DNA of 63,963 bases, filler included, from Collodictyon triciliatum (Eukaryota), in NCBI GenBank assembly GCA_043381765.1. It is 7 parts of 7 records of this genome, joined end to end, with 100 filler letters (N's around TTAATTAATTAA, not from the genome) between each part and the next. Parts side by side here need not be neighbours in the genome. Positions count along the whole stretch, not along the records: positions 10,911 to 23,318 come from JBHJMP010000365.1; 6 more parts are not named here. One strand, given 5' to 3'. Shown here piece by piece: positions 10,944-37,900 of the stretch. Every line of letters starts with the position of its first letter. The first letter of the stretch is position 1. The notes beneath the pieces were generated by a model. That model ran no database searches. It saw nothing but the letters and a program-made list of their open reading frames with translations, and was not told where the DNA came from. A program made the position numbers and the translations under genes.

Positions 10944-13263
10944 GATGTAATCTTTTTTCTTCTGCTCCGAAGCGAAATCTTCGCTGTAGTTTCTTGTGCA
11001 CTTCTTCATCAAAACAAGCTTGTTCCTTGAAGGACTTTATGAAACAGAGATTATATTAAATTCCCCAGTTAACTCCTATTTTTTTTTTTTTTTTGTATTG
11101 CTGCATTTAGCCGAAAACTAATTTAGCCTTACAATTCCGATCCTTTTTGCACTTTGAGTAATTTCATCGTATACAGTTTCCTTATCCTTTAAATTCAAGA
11201 AGGATAAGACCTAATATTAAAGTAAAAAACAGTGGATAATAGTCAACAATATACACATGATATAAAGGGCCCTTATAAGATATTTAGAAATTGCTTGGGT
11301 TGGGTACATTCTCATTCCGAAGTTGTATTTGTATGCAATCAAATAGTTGAACGCGCATCGTCTACAAACGTTAAAAAATTAGGATTTGATACAAGATAGG
11401 TAAATAAAGATAGACAAAATAAAGGCATACGCCGAATAAGGCCCTTCCCAACAAAACCAAATACCTTTCGTATGGCTACTATTTCACGATATTCGAGAGA
11501 TAATATGGATAGCTTGGGAAAAGTAGCTCTAAATCCGATTCGGTGACTTCCAATCCATAAACGTCCGTATTGACCCATATGTTCACATGTATAATCTATT
11601 TTTTCAGTCATAAAATAAATTGTAACCAAGTGCTGTAACTTTGAATCGAAAAGGAAAAAAAAATTAACAAGAATTGTATCTCATCCTCTTTATATTTATG
11701 TTGCAATAAGATACCAAGAAGTTATCGAATTTGTACGTGATATAACCGTTTCATCTGCTGACGCACCAAAGATTCTTCTAAAGTTTGCCAGGTCAATTGT
11801 AACATCAGCATTCTCTTCTTCGATGTTCTCGATGTCAAGAATCTATTGCAGATGATATCATATATTGATTGTAAATTGATAGAGATCTAGCCAAATAATT
11901 GCTTTATTAACTTCTAATAGTTTATTGCTTTATTTTTGTTATCAATTAGAAAAAAAAAACATGTAGGTTTATATTCCAATTTTTCCAGTATGAAGGATTC
12001 AAAGTTACGCAAAATTTTCCAAGGCGTCTTTTAATGGCTGCCATCATTATTCTTAACATGGAGACGTCATTGAACGAATAGTATTTCTTGGCTTTTGTTA
12101 AGACTTCAATCTTGTTATTGAGCTTTGTTTTTCTCTAGTATTTTTTTTTTATGTGATGACATTATGCCAGTATTTAGCTTTAATGTAAAGGAATGTACAC
12201 GTATTATTAAAGTATTTTCGGAAAAAATTATGATATTCGTATAAATTCGTCATTAAATAACACATTATAGAACACTGACCAATGAATTTTTTTTTAAAAG
12301 ATTGATGTGAAATAGAAAAAATTTTACTTGATCAAAATCGTTAAATTATCAAACCTCTCTAACATCCTCAATATCCTTAAGGTCTAGAATCACCTTTTTG
12401 CCGGACTTAACAAAAATGAGACTCTCTGGGAGTAAAATCAATTCACCAGAGGTTCCATTGTAAGAGCACGTTGAATCTTTTGGACCGAAATTAGCAACGC
12501 TCATATTAAATCAGAAATTGATAGTGATAAATAAACAAATAATTGTAGATACAGATCTGTATTTCACGTGGATAAAGATATCGAAAAAAAATATGTAGAT
12601 ACCACAAAATAAGATCATTCCAAAATAACGTATGAGAAAATGGCAATCAGAAAAAATCATATGGAATGGACTCTAAATAAAATAAAAAATAAATTAATGA
12701 CACAATAGGACAATATTGTCCAATTATCTATGGTTTTTTTTTTTTACCGGCAATAATCTTCTCTACTTTACTGGAAGAATATTGATGTTTAAACTTTTCG
12801 GCTTTCGTACGATCTTTAGGGCTCATGTAATTTGCCTCGGGGTCCTACATAAGGAAAATAGGGTTGACATCCATGCATATTCCACACCGTAAGTATTACA
12901 TACTTCAATACTCGGAATCCAGAAATTAAGAACGGGCGTGTATAAATTATTTTCAGGAGAAGTTCGCACAGCAATCTGCATCAGTGTAGGATTTGAGTCG
13001 TGTATGTATCGTTAACCTATCATATACCAATGATATTTGTATGTATAAATAGATGCCTTATCACTCTCTCTTTGAAGTTCAATCACTTCAGAGTCACCTC
13101 CGATGAATGAAAGCCATGTTTTGACTTTAGATACGTGCTTAATTTTATCTCGAGTAAGATGTATCTGTCCAATTTTTTTATTGTGGTTTAAAATCGAATA
13201 TGATAATAAAATGTTACAATATAAGCTATATTTACCACAAAGGAACAAAGGAACAAAGGAACA

Positions 13264-13362
<99 letters not shown>

Positions 13363-20037: not shown

Positions 20038-20136
<99 letters not shown>

Positions 20137-23075
20137 CAGTTTACTGCGATATTATAAAACCAAGCAAATTCATTTTGATAAAATTTGAGGAAAAAGAAAA
20201 GAAAATAATAGTTAATACCGAATCACTAGACGTAACCGCCCGATTGTAGTAGTGTATATCAATCTTAACAGACCCTGTAGTAGTACACTTTTCCTAGAAT
20301 TTATTTAAATATCTTATAAGTTGGCGAAAATCTATTGGAAAAATTTGAAGAAAATAAAGAAAAATAACAGGATAATCAAGAGCTATCTTTCTTAAATTAG
20401 GGGGTTCCCTTGGTTAAGAATATCGCACATTGCCTTTGTAGAGACTGATGATCGACGAAGCCCTTTTACGTGGTGTTGGGGGCTTCGAAAATTTTTGATC
20501 TTCAGCAACTTGTGATGGAACGTCAGACTCCGGAGGTGTCGCGTTAATATCCAGCGAGAGTTCTCATGAAGCGACAAAGTCAATAGAGTGAGTGAATATT
20601 GTCAGCAACCATACAAGATAAATGGATATAAGTAAGTTGATACCATGATATCTAGAATCCTCAAAATTTTGCAAAGGAAGTAAAACGGAGCCTAGCTTTG
20701 TGCTGGACCTATGCTCGTTCTATAAAGTAGAGTCTACGTATTTAAATTCCGTTGTTTTTTAAAGGAAAAATAATACAATTTCATGTATTTCATAGCCCCT
20801 ACATTACTACATAGAGATACTAAGATGTATTCATTCTTTTGCGTCATTATCCTAGAATACAAGGAAATCAGACAAAAATACAATTAAAAATATAATTACT
20901 AAAAAATCGCTTGAATAAAAAAAATCATAGCTTGATATAAGATCCAAATAGGAATAAATAAAGGCAAGACAACGCATAAGCCTTTCAATAAAAAATGACT
21001 GAGGAATAATATGTGATTTGATGATGGAAATACTAATAGAAAAATCCATACATAGATATATGCTCATTCCAGATTGGTTCGAGGCATCTCTTTCTTGGTT
21101 TGCATTTCCATTTATTCCCAGAAGGTATTAGTTTCAATTTGACGAATGGATTAGAACTTGTTGGATAAAAGGAGCCATCTGCATAAATAGTCAATTGAGA
21201 GCATCAGAAAACATGAAAAATAAAATAGCTACAACAGCATGCTTAACATACGTCTGTCCACCGGCTTTACATTTGTAGCTGACCGAACTGAAGCAAATAA
21301 TAGAATATTTACTTAATAAAATAAATTTGGAGACGCTGAATAGTACTAAATGATATTTAAGACATCACAATTCATGCAAATTCCTTTAAACGCATACCAA
21401 ACACAAACAATTCTCCATTTGAAGTATCCAGCTATAAAATATAAATTGCATCAAACTTATATGTTATTCTGTGTTAAATAAATATGAATATAATTCATTT
21501 CAATTCGTCAAAACTGAAAGGAATAATATATATTTGAATTCCATAGAAAAATACATTTTGCTGAGACAAAATAATCTTAAGCTCGTTAAGGTGTTGTCCC
21601 TTCCATATTCTATATGATTCATGGCCCTAATGAGTAGTATATGTTAATTTATTTCAGTTTGATATAAACTATATGATATTTGATCCAAATAATTTGGGGT
21701 TCTCTTGTTCTACAGATACGAACAATTGATTCAGGAGTCATCCACGGATGCAAATCATTTTCAATAAGACTGATAAGCTTCTCCATTTCCCCTATCATAT
21801 TCTATATTTTGATAAATGATAAATAAGTCAAATGCTGGTCAAAGAGTTTAATACTAGTATATAGAAGAGCGATATTTGTGCATGAATTGATGTGGCAAAC
21901 TCCATGCGAAGATAGTTCCCTGGATGCAAAATCATCGTATTCCGCCTCCGTGATGTCAAACAGCTGCCGAAGTAATTCAAACCTATAAGTCAGGGGTCAT
22001 TCATTCTGCCTCAAATTAAAAAAAAAAAGTTTATTCAAAAGCAATATGCTACAAGGGAAGTCTTTGATGAATACTGAATAACATTTTACTTATTTTTCAT
22101 CCACATGCGGAAGGGTTCAATATTTCTGTAGAGGGTCGGATGTAAGATGCATCGATGGAATCTCATAAAAATGTCGTTCTAGTTGGGGGTTCCAGAATGT
22201 TAGTAGACACTTTGGTTTGATTGACTCTCAAATTCTCTTTCATGACTTCTTTTCTATATAGAAAATACCAAAGTCTATCTGAAAAAACAAACAAACAGCA
22301 GGTCTCTGATGGTAATTTTTTCGAATATAAATGCTAAGAACCTTCGATAGCCCCTTCAAAACCCTGGTGCTGCGAAGTCTATCACCAATATCAATACCAT
22401 GCTCACATATAATTTCCATCATATCTAAACAAAAATAAAAGAGAATTCATTATAAAAAAAAGTTACAAGATTAATACTATGAAGAGAGATTTTTTTAATG
22501 ACAGAGATATTCAGGGGAGTAGGTATGGAATAATAACAAAAGCAATAGTTTAGATGAGTTTCATCCTCACACGAAATATAACTTTAATTAGATTAAATAC
22601 ATCAATTTCAATAAAGAAAATACAGTCAAAATCAAGCAACCATTAAAGCGGTAAGACGGATGGGAAATATGATTACAATCGGGATGCTCAGTAAACACAA
22701 TCTTCTCATCTACTGCTTTCCCATCTTCATCAAGCTCACGAACCATCCTGTCGTTTTCCTCATGCGAGAAAGTATGCTGAACGACCCGTTTTAGATACTC
22801 TACAGCTCTGATAAATAATAACCGGATGAATAAAATTGGTCAGGATAATATGGATGGGTGCTGACGAAGGGGAAAGCACAGAGCAAGCAACACAAGCAAG
22901 TGCTCTTGAATGATCGACGAAGAAGAGAGAGACGATGGCACCATCCAAGCAAAAATAAAAAAGAGGAAGAAAAGAAAGACAAGTAGAAAAGCTACAGCGA
23001 TTAAAGCACACTCATTTATTATCTTGTTTCTTACGAGGATGACCGCTGCCTCAGCATCGGGTTGAAGCGGGACAT
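10944..23075 (-). CDS. Munc13/BAIAP3-like protein: C2 + MUN (MHD1/MHD2-like) + at least 4-5 tandem GRAM/PH-like domains; 3'-truncated by scaffold end
   Basis: C2 at ~20645-21290 (SATNVKPVD..SSNPFVKLKL..WKCKPRKRCLEPIWNEHI). AILREYVIRYG at ~19520 resembles Munc13 DEFAMRYG. MHD1-like LFKAQKSMWV..VIDRCVEKDD and YSNGPLDLF at ~16865-17215. GRAM-like YSCIYQKTRHGMLYVTSNSVFF (~14380-14445), STCSYNGTSGELIFTPESLIF (~12415-12476) and YTCEHMGQYGRLWIGSHRIGF (~11530-11595). Confidence 0.75.
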
Positions 23076-23418
23076 GTATCCTGTTCCTGTCTTGTGCTTA
23101 TCCTTCTATTTGCTCGCTTTCTATCAGAAGGGAAACTTGTCGCTCTGGGATCCAGCGCCAAACTTTTTTTCGACATACAGGAGAAACAAGCAAGGAGAAC
23201 ACAACCACAGAACTTAAAAAAATAAACAAAACAAAACAAAACAAAACAAAACAAAACAAAACAAAACAAAACAAAACAAAACAAAACAAAACAAAACAAA
23301 ACAAAACAAAACAAAACANNNNNNNNNNNNNNNNNNNNNNNNNNNNNNNNNNNNNNNNNNNNTTAATTAATTAANNNNNNNNNNNNNNNNNNNNNNNNNN
23401 NNNNNNNNNNNNNNNNNN

Positions 23419-28446: not shown

Positions 28447-29914
28447 TGAAAAAAAAAATTTACTATGGAAGTTTAAAAAAAAATAAAGAATGTATGGAAG
28501 CTACGAGGGATGTAGGAAACACAATTTCAAATGAGTGCTTTTGTTTTTTGTTTTTTGTTTTTGCTTTGTTTTTTTGTTTTGTTTTTTTGTTTTGTTTTTT
28601 TGTTTTGTTTTTTTGTTTTGTTTTTTTGTTTTGTTTTTTTGTTTTGTTTTTTTGTTTTGTTTTNNNNNNNNNNNNNNNNNNNNNNNNNNNNNNNNNNNNN
28701 NNNNNNNTTAATTAATTAANNNNNNNNNNNNNNNNNNNNNNNNNNNNNNNNNNNNNNNNNNNNAGAAGAGAAGAGAAGAGAAGAGAAGAGAAGAGAAGAG
28801 AAGAGAAGAGAAGAGAAGAGAAGAGAAGAGAAGAGAAGAGAAGAGAAGAGAAGAGAAGAAGAGAAGAGAAGAAGAGAAGAGAAGAAGAGAAGAGAAGAAG
28901 AGAAGAGAAGAAGAGAAGAGAAGAGAAGAAGAGAAAGAAAAAGAGAAAGTTTTACAAAAGAACACCCGTCCTTTTTTTTTAAGACCATTCTCCTGCTCTG
29001 CTCCACCACCTTTCATTTCCCCCTCAAAAGCTCAAGACCTGCCCTGCATCAAACTCTTTCAGTACAAGACTGAATAATAACACCATACTTTGGGAGCGAA
29101 GCCAAACAAGAAATCATTAAATAGTACAAAACGAGGAAACAGCAAAAAGCCAATACACAGAGAAAAAAAAGAAAAGAAAAAGGGAGCCAAACATGAGCAT
29201 CATCGAGAAAGACAAGATGCCGCAAACACAACCGCGAGCTCCACAAATCCTTTCAACTCATCGCTCTCTCGTGCTTAATGTCATGAATCGGAAGATATGG
29301 CTGGCAGACATGACAAAAGCAGCTTCTATCTGTTTCTTAATAATATAATCTGTGCAGAAATGACAGTGTTTACACGGGCCATACTTTCGCACTGCCTTTG
29401 AGTTGCATGTACAGAGACATGCTTTGTTGATAGCAGAGTCCTCGAGATGGATTCAGCTCTGGCACAAAAGGAGCTTGCGATGGACGATTTTGTGATGGGC
29501 ATTAATTTCGATTCTTTGATTAAGTGTGCTTTCATCTTCCTTCTTTCTTTCCTCCATCCCACTTTGACATCCACGTCTTCTGTAGATGCATTTCATAGCT
29601 TCTATGGCAGATGGATGAAAATGCAATCCGGTGATGCACTCAGTCGTATTAAACGAGAGATGTGGAGTTTGATTTTACCGAGTCCGATGTGTGCAAACGA
29701 CATAGAAAAATGCCAGGGTGATTCGGTAAAGTGAAATGACACACTCACACCCACAACGTGGCACTGGTATATAAAGAAGTTAATGCATTTATGTTGGTTG
29801 ATGTCCGTGGATTTCTTGGAGGATAATCTCCCCGAGAAGGTCAGCCGAAAAGAATGAAGTGATAATCTTCTGTTCTTGCAACACAACAGTGAGGCATCCT
29901 CTGCTATGGGACGA

Positions 29915-34260: not shown

Positions 34261-34520
34261 CTTGAAGTGTAAGGCAGATAAATAATGGAAATGTTGAGAT
34301 TGACACTGGAGTGTTATACAGAAGAGAAGAGAAGAGAAGAGAAGAGAAGAGAAGAGAAGAGAAGAGAAGAGAAGAGAAGAGAAGAGAAGAGAAGAGAAGA
34401 GAAGAGAAGAGAAGAGAAGANNNNNNNNNNNNNNNNNNNNNNNNNNNNNNNNNNNNNNNNNNNNTTAATTAATTAANNNNNNNNNNNNNNNNNNNNNNNN
34501 NNNNNNNNNNNNNNNNNNNN

Positions 34521-34990
34521 GTGGCTCTTCAGTCTGTGGTTCTTCAATCTGTGGCTCTTCAGTCTGTAGCTCTTCAGTCTGCGGCTCTTCAGTCTGTAGT
34601 TCTTCAATCTGTGGTTCTTCAATCTTGGGCTCTTCAGCCTTTGGTTCTTCAGCCTTTGGTTCTTCAGCCTTTGGTTCTTCAGCCTTTGGTTCTTCAGTCT
34701 GTGGTTCTTCAGTCTGTGGTTCTTCAATCTGTGGTTCTTCAATCTGTGGCTCTTCAGTCTTGGGCTCTTCAGTCTGTGGCTCTTCAGTCTGTAGTTCTTC
34801 AGCCTTTGGTTCTTCAGTCTGTGGCTCTTCAGTCTGTGGCTCTTCAGTCTGTGGCTCTTCAGTCTGTGGCTCTTCAGCCTTTGGTTCTTCAGTCTGTGGC
34901 TCTTCAGTCTGTGGCTCTTCAGTCTGTAGTTCTTCAATCTTGGGCTCTTCAGTCTGTGGCTCTTCAGTCTGTGGCTCTTCAGTCTGTGGT
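34521..34990 (-). repeat. Coding 15-bp minisatellite (about 31 copies) encoding the pentapeptide (Q/K)(T/A/I)EE(P/L)
   Basis: Unit GTGGCTCTTCAGTCT and variants on the + strand, running into the scaffold end. Confidence 0.95.
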
Positions 34991-37900
34991 ATTTCGCTAA
35001 GCTCCATGATTTCATTCTCTCGAACAGTTAACTCTTCATAGACTTCTTGTACCTCCATAAGAGATATCTCTTTGGTAGCAGATTCATCAGCATTCGGCAC
35101 AGATGGCTCTCTATCATCTTTGGTTACCTGAAATTCATCTACCGCACCCTGGTCGATTCCTACTGCGGATATTTGCCGCTTCATATTTTCATTTGGCTCT
35201 TGGTCTCGTGTAGGTATATTTTGGTTTTCCTTATTCGTACACTCATCAGCGCTTTCGGTCTGATTATTTTCGTCTTCGATCTCTTCTGAACCGCCAACAA
35301 TTTCGTCGGGAACGTCGTCTTTCTCATGCCCTTCTTGTGCAACTCTGTCTATGTTGAGAGAATCATGTATTTGCCCTTCGTTGTCTGTTCCGACTGATTG
35401 CTCGCGACTTTTCAACTGCCTAGGCTCGGAGTCGTCATTTACTGGTTCATGATTCTCATGTAGTTCCCCATTTTCTTCTGCTGTTTTCTCTTCTGCAGAG
35501 TCAACCTCCATTTCATTCTCGGTCGCTGGCTTACTCACTTCGTCAGATGGCTCCTTATTTTCAGGAATGAATCCGCTTGGCGATGTTTTAACCGCCATAT
35601 CGTTGTTCTCAAGTTCCTCTGGTTCTTCGTCGGCTAAATCTTTCGTAGATTCGGATTCAGACTTGGATTCAGATTTGGATTCAGATTTGGATTCAGACTC
35701 AGACTCAGACTCGGACTCAGACTCAGTTTCAGATTCGGATTCAAACTCGGAATTGGACTGTGACTTTACTTTGGTCTCTGATTCTCCGTCAGAGTCTTCC
35801 AAAGATTCGCTTGGCTCATAAGTATTTTTGATTGGTACGGAACTTATGTCAGTAGTCTCTGACTGAGATAATGATGTGAGAGCAGGTTCTTCTTCCGTAG
35901 GATTTGTTGTATTAGACCGGTTCACGGCGGCATCTTGAGTGGGTCCTTGTTCTATGATATTCTCTGTCGAATGCAATGAGGGTGTTTCACCAAAGTTCTT
36001 CTCTGAGTCATCATTGTGCTCTGAATCACCTAGCACGACATTGTCATCATACTCCGGGTCTGTTGCCTCCATAACTGGGCGCTCGGTGGGACCTGACGTT
36101 GAAGCAGACCCATTTTCAGAAGGTAACCGAACGGTCTTCTTTTCCTTTGGAGCAGAGGTATCTAGATGACTATAATTTAGGAAAAGAAAATAATGTGGGA
36201 GCACATGAAGGACCTTGATGCAATGAAGTGGTTTGGGTGTCATAAATATCAATGGAGAAATAAATCACGGCTTAATATATTCATAAAAGGTATACTGCTC
36301 TTTGACTGCGGTTTCTTTTGATGATTCTTATCTTGTGTTTTCAGTTTCAAGGCAGGTGCAGGTGATGGGCTCTGATGTAAGAATCCGCAATTAGTTCGCA
36401 CACATTCGTATATGTGAATATGAATCGATATGATATCATCGGTGCTAATTATAGTGAAAAAATATCAAGTTTAAGGTGCACGTGTCTATGTGTGTGGAAC
36501 CATAGGAGAATAGTATCATTACTATGCTACTCTTGTCAGGTTTTGCCAGTGCAGGCTTTACGATGTAGCCGAACAGGTCATATACCCTCACTGAGTGGAA
36601 CAAAAGAGAGAAATATCATCAGGTCATGAGATTTCGATTAAAAATGATGATAATGATAATGATAATGATAATGATAATGATAATGATAATGATAATGATA
36701 ATGATAATGATAATGATAATGATAATGATAATGATAATGATAATGATAATAGGGATAATGATAATAGGGATAATGATAATGATAATGATAATGATAATGA
36801 TAATGATAATGATAATGATAATGATAATGATAATGATAATAGGGATAATGATAATGATAATGATAATGATAATGATAATAGGGATAGTGATAGTGATAGT
36901 GATAGTGATAGTGATAGTGATAGTGATAGTGATAGTGATAGTGATGGTGATGGTGATGGTGATGGTGATGGTGATGGTGATAGTGATAGTAATAGTAATA
37001 GTAATTTAATGAATATAGATATCATGAGAATAATCCATGTAGCAAGTGGAAATGACTTTTAAATTATAGAAAATATATTTAATTATATATTAGTACTTTT
37101 GGCCTTCATAAGAGCTCTGGTATACTCCACAAATGTAATCTGTTTCGACATATCACTAACAATAAAGTAATCAACCATTATGGAAAATCGCTCTGCTGGG
37201 TAATGTTGCGCGCAGGAATTCAGCACCTCATGAGCTGTCATAATGTTTCATATGTAAGTAAATGCAACCCTTGTAGGATATTATATCATGTAATTATTGT
37301 TCAAATATGTAGGAGAATGTTCGATTGATGAGGCAGCGACAAACTGAGATTCAATATTGGATAGAATCATGTTTAATAATAGAATGTCATCTAAAATTCA
37401 TTAGTCTCACCATTCGAAGTCATAATTCTTCCGTTATTTTGCGAGTGACATGAGTTAAAGGCAGCCCTGTGAAGCTGGAGCTCATCTCTTGCAATAAGGT
37501 TTTCACCAACTGGGCGGCCTACGGAGCCCTTTAGAACAGAAGTTGACAGATAAATTTCACGCTGCGGAGACAGAAATGTGCAAACGTGATATATGACAAG
37601 GTATATTGGTTAAAGATTCTGTTTAGATTTACGCACTTTCTCCAGATCTTCGTCGGCGCTTAACGGTCTTTGTTTCAAAGAATTGTTTGCTGGCTGACTT
37701 TTTATGGAGGCTAATGCTTTAGCGTTGTGGCGAGCAGGAGCTGATGTAGAACGAGGCTCTCTAAATAGATTCGGGCATAGGGAATTACTTGCAATCAACT
37801 TTGATTTCCTTATCATTTATTCATTTCTGTACTGAAATGAATACATATGAGATAGCATAGGAATATAAATCATCGAAAAGCATCCCATCTGGATAGTAAG

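Follow-up and report, generated by a model that had tools for sequence, protein, structure and literature searches.

We describe here a locus of the eukaryote Collodictyon triciliatum (assembly GCA_043381765.1) that encodes a C2 domain, a long helical region and a tandem array of divergent GRAM/PH-like repeats, all read from the minus strand of scaffold JBHJMP010000365.1. This scaffold occupies positions 10911-23318 of the window, by which we mean the whole stretch of 63,963 nucleotides that was analyzed, and the locus fills it from end to end. A real spliced gene starts at an ATG at position 23075, and the C2 domain plus the GRAM-like array is a solid finding. It is plausible that the helical region is a Munc13-like MUN domain. 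That all three parts (C2, a MUN-type helical region and the GRAM/PH-like array) make up one minus-strand gene, running from the ATG at 23075 past position 10944 and truncated at its 3′ end, is a reading to which we give roughly even chances.

Structure of the gene

The exon model was curated by hand from a three-frame reading of the minus strand, with canonical AG and GT borders. About 45 GT-AG exons could be chained on this strand from the ATG at 23075, the first of which (23075-23035) splices to exon 22807-22641 (Table 1). The 29 exons leading from the C2 domain to the second repeat encode 972 residues free of stops, counted from the first C2 exon (21431), and the ag..gt flanks were seen for 27 of them. 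Nine further exons (12975-10944) contribute another 300 stop-free residues, giving a total of about 1270 residues over some 38 exons without any internal stop and with canonical splice sites. The gtgagt donor of the last of these exons, 11034-10944, is 33 bases short of the scaffold end at 10911; since the scaffold ends there, the gene lacks its 3′ end.

The original prediction described this locus as spliced in phase. The 972- and 300-residue chains bear this out, but the frame breaks after position 13028 and there is a phase mismatch at the assembly gap 16201-16300. The elements quoted in that prediction are all present: the ATG at 23075, the C2 domain, the motifs AILREYVIRYG, WV..VIDRCVEKDD and YSNGPLDLF, and four repeats. 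One open reading frame (ORF), 19254-19100, possibly used as an exon in the earlier reading, fits no phase and was excluded. The residues that follow VEKDD, VRAILKNRHAFY, come after a gtacga donor, and the present model places them in an intron.

A C2 domain unlikely to bind calcium

The predicted C2 domain was confirmed by two kinds of search. The stop-to-stop ORF around exon 21178-21052 matches the Pfam C2 family (PF00168) with an E value of 7.3e-6 and 26.6 bits, against a cut-off of 22. The same exon on its own matches 43 C2 chains of the PDB at E values up to 1, the best being synaptotagmin-7 (4.7e-5), with synaptotagmin-1, synaptotagmin-3, Doc2 and protein kinase C among the others. Together with three flanking exons, which join it in phase, this exon makes up a compact C2 domain. 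The C2 exons (21431-20644) lie N-terminal to the helical exons (19564-15292) in one phase-consistent chain, with a Ser/Pro-rich linker between them, and the N gap at 19938-20037 falls in the intron after exon 20293-20227.

An aspartate in the SDP loop motif is a mark of calcium-binding C2 domains of the synaptotagmin type. In the PDB alignments, in which the SDP motif was the only site assessed, the locus has SNP opposite the SDP of both synaptotagmin-7 and synaptotagmin-1. At least one calcium ligand is therefore missing, and this substitution makes calcium binding by the domain improbable.

A tandem array of GRAM/PH-like repeats

Downstream of the helical region we observe four repeats of 115-135 residues each, followed by the lead-in of a fifth (VHKKLQRRFRFGAEEKRLH, exon 11034-10944) whose core lies beyond the scaffold end. 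A tandem array running off the scaffold, as originally predicted, is thus what the locus contains. With single exons rather than whole domains as queries, the core exon of repeat 1 matches Pfam GRAM (PF02893) at 5e-5 and 23.6 bits, which is exactly the cut-off, and gives weaker matches to the PH-clan families Vps36 GLUE, PH_TFIIH and PH_FAN. The core of repeat 4 matches GRAM below the cut-off (0.0076, 16.5 bits). Since only one core reaches the GRAM cut-off, the label GRAM/PH-like is a fair one for the array, and GRAM in the strict sense applies to one copy, at the level of an exon. A profile built from the four cores and run against the PDB recovered Vps36 GLUE (2cay_A; E 0.0015) and the Rtt106 PH domain (0.13), the score being modest; profile similarity to a solved domain of the PH superfold was thus found through Vps36 GLUE.

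When the four core exons are aligned, repeats 2 to 4 are 20-38% identical to the first, and one Cys and one Gly are invariant. Compared by blastp, three of the six pairs among repeats 1-4 match, namely 3 with 4 (4e-4), 1 with 3 (0.01) and 2 with 3 (0.55), and the remaining three do not. The codon just ahead of the Y/S-x-C motif is split by a phase-1 intron in every one of repeats 1-4, and the lead-in of repeat 5 likewise ends at a phase-1 donor. This common intron position and phase is the strongest sign that the repeats descend from a common ancestor. The repeat pattern proposed originally, F..F....E.....C.....G.L......F, holds for its invariant Cys and Gly and is otherwise looser: repeats 3, 4 and 5 show the F..F....E lead-in clearly and repeat 2 shows it weakly, and repeat 1 lacks it.

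We also ran the four-repeat profile over 2372 six-frame ORFs of the window. Nothing was found outside 11121-14970, the best off-target match having an E value of 0.18. No further copy was thus found on the other six scaffolds, and the missing 3′ end of the gene lies outside the window. The original prediction went on to propose that the array replaces the distal C2 domain. The locus does not allow this claim, since the gene is cut off at its 3′ end and a C2 domain may still follow the array.

Arguments for and against a single Munc13-like gene

Several observations weigh against a single gene with a Munc13-like middle, and they are considered here together with the alternatives that they favor. 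They concern the junction between the helical and GRAM parts, the identity of the helical region, and the integrity of the scaffold.

One strand carries both the helical and the GRAM parts. Exon 15381-15292, the last of the helical series, ends GAG/gtaata in phase 0, and the link exon opens ttttag/G, also in phase 0, and runs stop-free into repeat 1. An inner gt...ag pair in the link exon is only 15 bases apart, too short for an intron, so that 14970-14781 is one exon. The shared strand and the phase-0 junction speak for the fusion asserted in the original prediction, and a single gene spanning both parts, from which we infer a single transcript, is in our view somewhat favored. On the other side, it is precisely the 184-N gap that separates the two parts. 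Past the donor at 15292, an unspliced reading meets a stop after nine codons, at about 15265, and an ATTAAA follows some 55 bases past this stop, at about 15207. The link exon also contains an in-frame ATG at 14919 with an A at position -3. By a codon table trained on 31 other exons, the 17 link-exon codons before this ATG have a score of -1.64. Among 568 exon windows this score falls within the bottom 1.6%, and it is equalled or exceeded by 40% of 2930 open windows outside exons. For the 46 codons that follow the ATG, the score is +11.6.

These data can also be explained by two adjacent genes on the same strand, one encoding the C2 domain and helical region and ending at about 15265, the other encoding the GRAM array and starting at the ATG at 14919, the fusion being a product of chaining across the gap. 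The stop with its ATTAAA, the in-frame ATG, the change from a non-coding-like to a coding-like score at that ATG and the position of the gap all favor this explanation, which we consider possible, with a likelihood well under one half. However, if the 184 Ns are an estimate of the gap size, no more than some 350 bases would separate the two genes, and introns at this locus reach about 800 bases. Moreover, the start of the link exon coincides precisely with a good acceptor, with a polypyrimidine tract, in the phase of the preceding donor, and the AT-rich codons of leucine-rich helices depress the codon score. A helical domain ending at the read-through stop would presumably also fall short of the end of MHD2, which again counts against two genes.

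The helical region is rich in Leu, Ile and Glu and is interrupted by N gaps at 17398-17497 and 16201-16300. The quoted motifs are found in exons 19564-19443 (AILREYVIRYG), 17217-17103 (MWVAEL..VIDRCVEKDD) and 16990-16865 (YSNGPLDLF). Their order and spacing fit MHD1 and MHD2 of Munc13-4, BAIAP3 and Munc13-1 as we take these to be arranged, which we treat as a lead only; the length of about 530 residues and the position of the C2 domain ahead of the helices presumably fit Munc13-4 as well. The Munc13-like MUN identity put forward in the original prediction nevertheless found no backing in the profile searches. The MUN and MHD families of Pfam were matched by none of 24 exon ORFs and by none of three read-throughs of in-frame introns (stops taken as X), and searches of the PDB with helical exons and read-through, which were able to meet Munc13-1, gave no matches. 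Such blanks are to be expected, because queries the size of an exon (25-54 residues) have little power to detect a helical family that has diverged.

The region may accordingly be something other than MUN, either another CATCHR-type tether or an unrelated domain, in which case the locus would encode a C2 and GRAM-array protein with no link to vesicle priming. The empty MUN/MHD searches are consistent with this, as is the fact that the sole weak Pfam matches of the helical ORFs are to unrelated helical families, TPR_DNAAF5 (0.0091) and SF3A3 (0.04), both below the cut-offs. Against it stand the short queries and the motif order and spacing that we assume for MHD1 and MHD2, and an alternative reading of the motif FLVRICP as RasGAP was rejected when Pfam RasGAP gave no match to that exon. 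We think an identity other than MUN doubtful, at roughly a one-in-three level of belief, and keep a Munc13-like MUN domain as a plausible identity for the helical region.

A scaffolding mis-join, in which the GRAM contig was wrongly placed after the helical contig, or a decaying pseudogene is improbable: the four internal N gaps, the two breaks in phase and the failure to find either relatives or RNA runs would fit such a history, but some 1270 residues over about 38 exons with canonical splice sites and no internal stop would not, and both breaks are as expected from draft indels or gap-hidden exons. The first break (13028-12975, minus strand) is the junction after exon 13164-13028, the sole point of the GRAM region at which the frame is lost; two bases are left over at the donor after 13028, with no acceptor to match, and a draft indel or a missed micro-exon may be responsible. 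At the second, across the gap 16201-16300, the acceptor at 16085 is in phase 2 and does not fit the exon before the gap, so that a hidden exon probably lies inside it.

As for relatives, none came from word-index searches in which the query was either a helical exon or the alignment of the four cores. When metagenome and genome contigs were scanned with exon 17991-17833, 595 and 537 pattern matches came up, none of them a relative. Of two helical exons submitted to the ESM Atlas, the first matched unnamed bacterial clusters with best scores of 0.78-0.81, and no usable match came from the second. A whole-library HMMER search with the core of repeat 1 produced a single match, to the bacterial TPR protein P0001, rejected as spurious. 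Exon queries of this kind need near-identical relatives, and these results are therefore evidence neither for nor against conservation.

Comparison with known proteins

One paper (PMC3849599) gives the architecture of the Munc13 family as C2A-MHD1-MHD2-C2B, with C2B serving calcium-dependent membrane binding, and presents a model for CAPS with two contacts, of the PH domain with lipid and of MHD1 with SNAREs.

Like Munc13-4 (UNC13D) and BAIAP3, the locus has an N-terminal C2 domain followed by a helical region of the order of 500-600 residues. Unlike them, it has at least 4.3 GRAM/PH-like repeats where their C2B directly follows MHD2, and its exon-sized queries yield no profile match to MHD1, MHD2 or MUN. 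CAPS/CADPS (UNC-31) also combines a C2 domain, a lipid-binding module of the PH fold and a helical region of Munc13 homology. Its single PH domain, however, precedes the helical region, whereas at this locus a GRAM-type PH-like array follows it; the C2-PH-MHD1 order of CAPS/CADPS is thus not found here.

At the level of the single repeat, the closest likenesses are to Vps36 GLUE and Pfam GRAM, both of the PH superfold, which share the core Y/S-x-C...G-x-L...hydrophobic strand...I/V-x-x-V. The array departs from Pfam GRAM in that only one of its four cores reaches the cut-off, repeats 2 and 3 having no GRAM match of their own in Pfam, and in that its copies are only about 20-38% identical. Tandem GRAM domains also occur in TBC1D8, TBC1D9 and further multi-GRAM proteins, two of them preceding the TBC RabGAP domain; to our knowledge, these proteins have no C2 domain or Munc13-like region. 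Literature searches combining MUN, Munc13 or BAIAP3 with GRAM, judged by titles and listings, found no paper on a Munc13-type protein with GRAM domains.

Table 1. Coordinates of the features of the locus and of the gaps and spacers in the window.
Feature	Position	Strand	Remarks
Exon 1	23035..23075	-	start codon ATG at 23075; encodes MSRFNPMLRQRSS; donor gtaaga
N-terminal exon	22641..22807	-	AVEYLKRVV...YRFN; N-terminal phases only partly settled
Further N-terminal ORF blocks	22424-22342, ~21985-21905, ~21795-21690, ~21634-21563	-	rough placement
C2 domain	20644..21431	-	synaptotagmin-like; four exons: 21431-21369, 21178-21052, 20851-20803, 20719-20644
Ser/Pro-rich linker	20227..20562	-	linker exon 20562-20429 and exon 20293-20227
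Helical, putatively MUN-like region	15292..19564	-	15 exons, ~530 residues
Helical exons 1-8	19564-19443, 19375-19286, 18886-18780, 18629-18536, 18395-18322, 18223-18146, 17992-17831, 17217-17103	-	
Helical exons 9-15	16990-16865, 16765-16691, 16614-16486, 16085-15958, 15816-15706, 15537-15463, 15381-15292	-	
Assembly gap at the junction	15010..15193		184 N, between last helical exon and first GRAM-side exon
Link exon	14781..14970	-	VKLLLGLYALKSNELEI; in-frame ATG at 14919; repeat 1 lead-in
GRAM-like repeat 1	13833..14445	-	exons 14445-14309, 14174-14124, 14084-14030; linker exon 13888-13833
GRAM-like repeat 2	12904..13673	-	exons 13673-13595, 13524-13409, 13164-13028; plus exon 12975-12904
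GRAM-like repeat 3	11961..12844	-	exons 12844-12748, 12476-12355, 12134-11961
GRAM-like repeat 4	11133..11842	-	exons 11842-11737, 11595-11465, 11361-11308, 11186-11133
Repeat 5 lead-in exon	10944..11034	-	encodes VHKKLQRRFRFGAEEKRLH; donor gtgagt
Internal N gaps of scaffold 10911-23318	15010-15193 (184 N), 16201-16300, 17398-17497, 19938-20037		
Spacers N44-TTAATTAATTAA-N44	10811-10910, 23319-23418, 28664-28763, 34421-34520, 54773-54872, 58769-58868		

Scaffolds and other genes in the window

A scan for N runs revealed six spacers in the window, each made of 44 N, TTAATTAATTAA and another 44 N. The window therefore consists of seven unrelated scaffolds strung together, and genes on either side of such a point are not genomic neighbors. 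The scaffold at 10911-23318 has a G+C content of about 27-33%, is rich in microsatellites and is plainly eukaryotic. Long intronic microsatellites of the GAAAG/GAAA, GAA and CTGT types occur at 17218-17640, 19000-19080, 20040-20150 and 13230-13380; they adjoin three of the four N gaps of this scaffold and probably caused them. Rfam gave no match anywhere in the window.

Other scaffolds carry further genes. A ROCO/LRRK-type gene with unusually long exons lies on the minus strand at 43159-50412 and comprises leucine-rich repeats (48964-49509 and 49822-50412), a Ras/Roc GTPase (45467-47359) and a protein kinase (43159-44970). A catalase gene on the plus strand at 60004-61654 (Pfam Catalase 3e-115, plus Catalase-rel) sits in a stretch of 63% G+C within an otherwise AT-rich assembly, with CA/GT microsatellites on either side; this stretch may represent a transfer, contamination or an island of different composition. 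There is also a pentatricopeptide-repeat ORF at 56692-57366 on the plus strand (PPR_3, 1.4e-7), and an ORF at 62153-62647 on the minus strand in which a RhoGAP-like motif was seen by eye and a 51-residue piece of which had no Pfam match. Finally, a very acidic open frame of 599 residues (34465-36264, minus strand) has many tandem copies of a 10-residue unit at its end and runs into the end of its scaffold.

Possible function and significance

If the locus is a single gene, it would begin at the ATG at 23075, run beyond 10944 and encode a protein of at least about 1400 residues. The order of its parts would be a short N-terminal region, the C2 domain, a helical stretch of at least about 530 residues and an array of no fewer than 4.3 divergent GRAM/PH-like domains. 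The helical part would correspond to a MUN domain of the Munc13-4/BAIAP3 type, which is CATCHR-like, and the protein might act as a tethering or priming factor for vesicles. The helical rod would then handle SNARE or SM proteins, and several weak lipid- or protein-binding PH-like modules could together provide membrane anchoring, supplying or supplementing the role played by the C-terminal C2 domain in Munc13-4 and by the PH domain in CAPS. Going one step further, the locus might represent a new branch of Munc13/BAIAP3 tethering proteins, in which at least five GRAM/PH-like modules replace or precede the C-terminal C2 domain and provide multivalent, calcium-independent recognition of membrane or cargo. 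We offer this last idea tentatively and hold it to be rather unlikely as it stands.

Should all of this hold, the protein would be a variant of the Munc13/CAPS theme and not a new kind of system. Its present value is that of a lead, from a predicted gene model in a gapped draft of an AT-rich eukaryote. Munc13-type factors are thought to hold a SNARE-organizing helical rod between two membranes by means of lipid-binding ends, and a natural variant with a GRAM-like array at its far end would probe how interchangeable these anchors are. If true, the architecture would be a third way of coupling the MUN rod to a membrane, after the C2B domain of Munc13-4 and the PH domain of CAPS, and would indicate a further code, of lipid or protein, by which vesicles are targeted.

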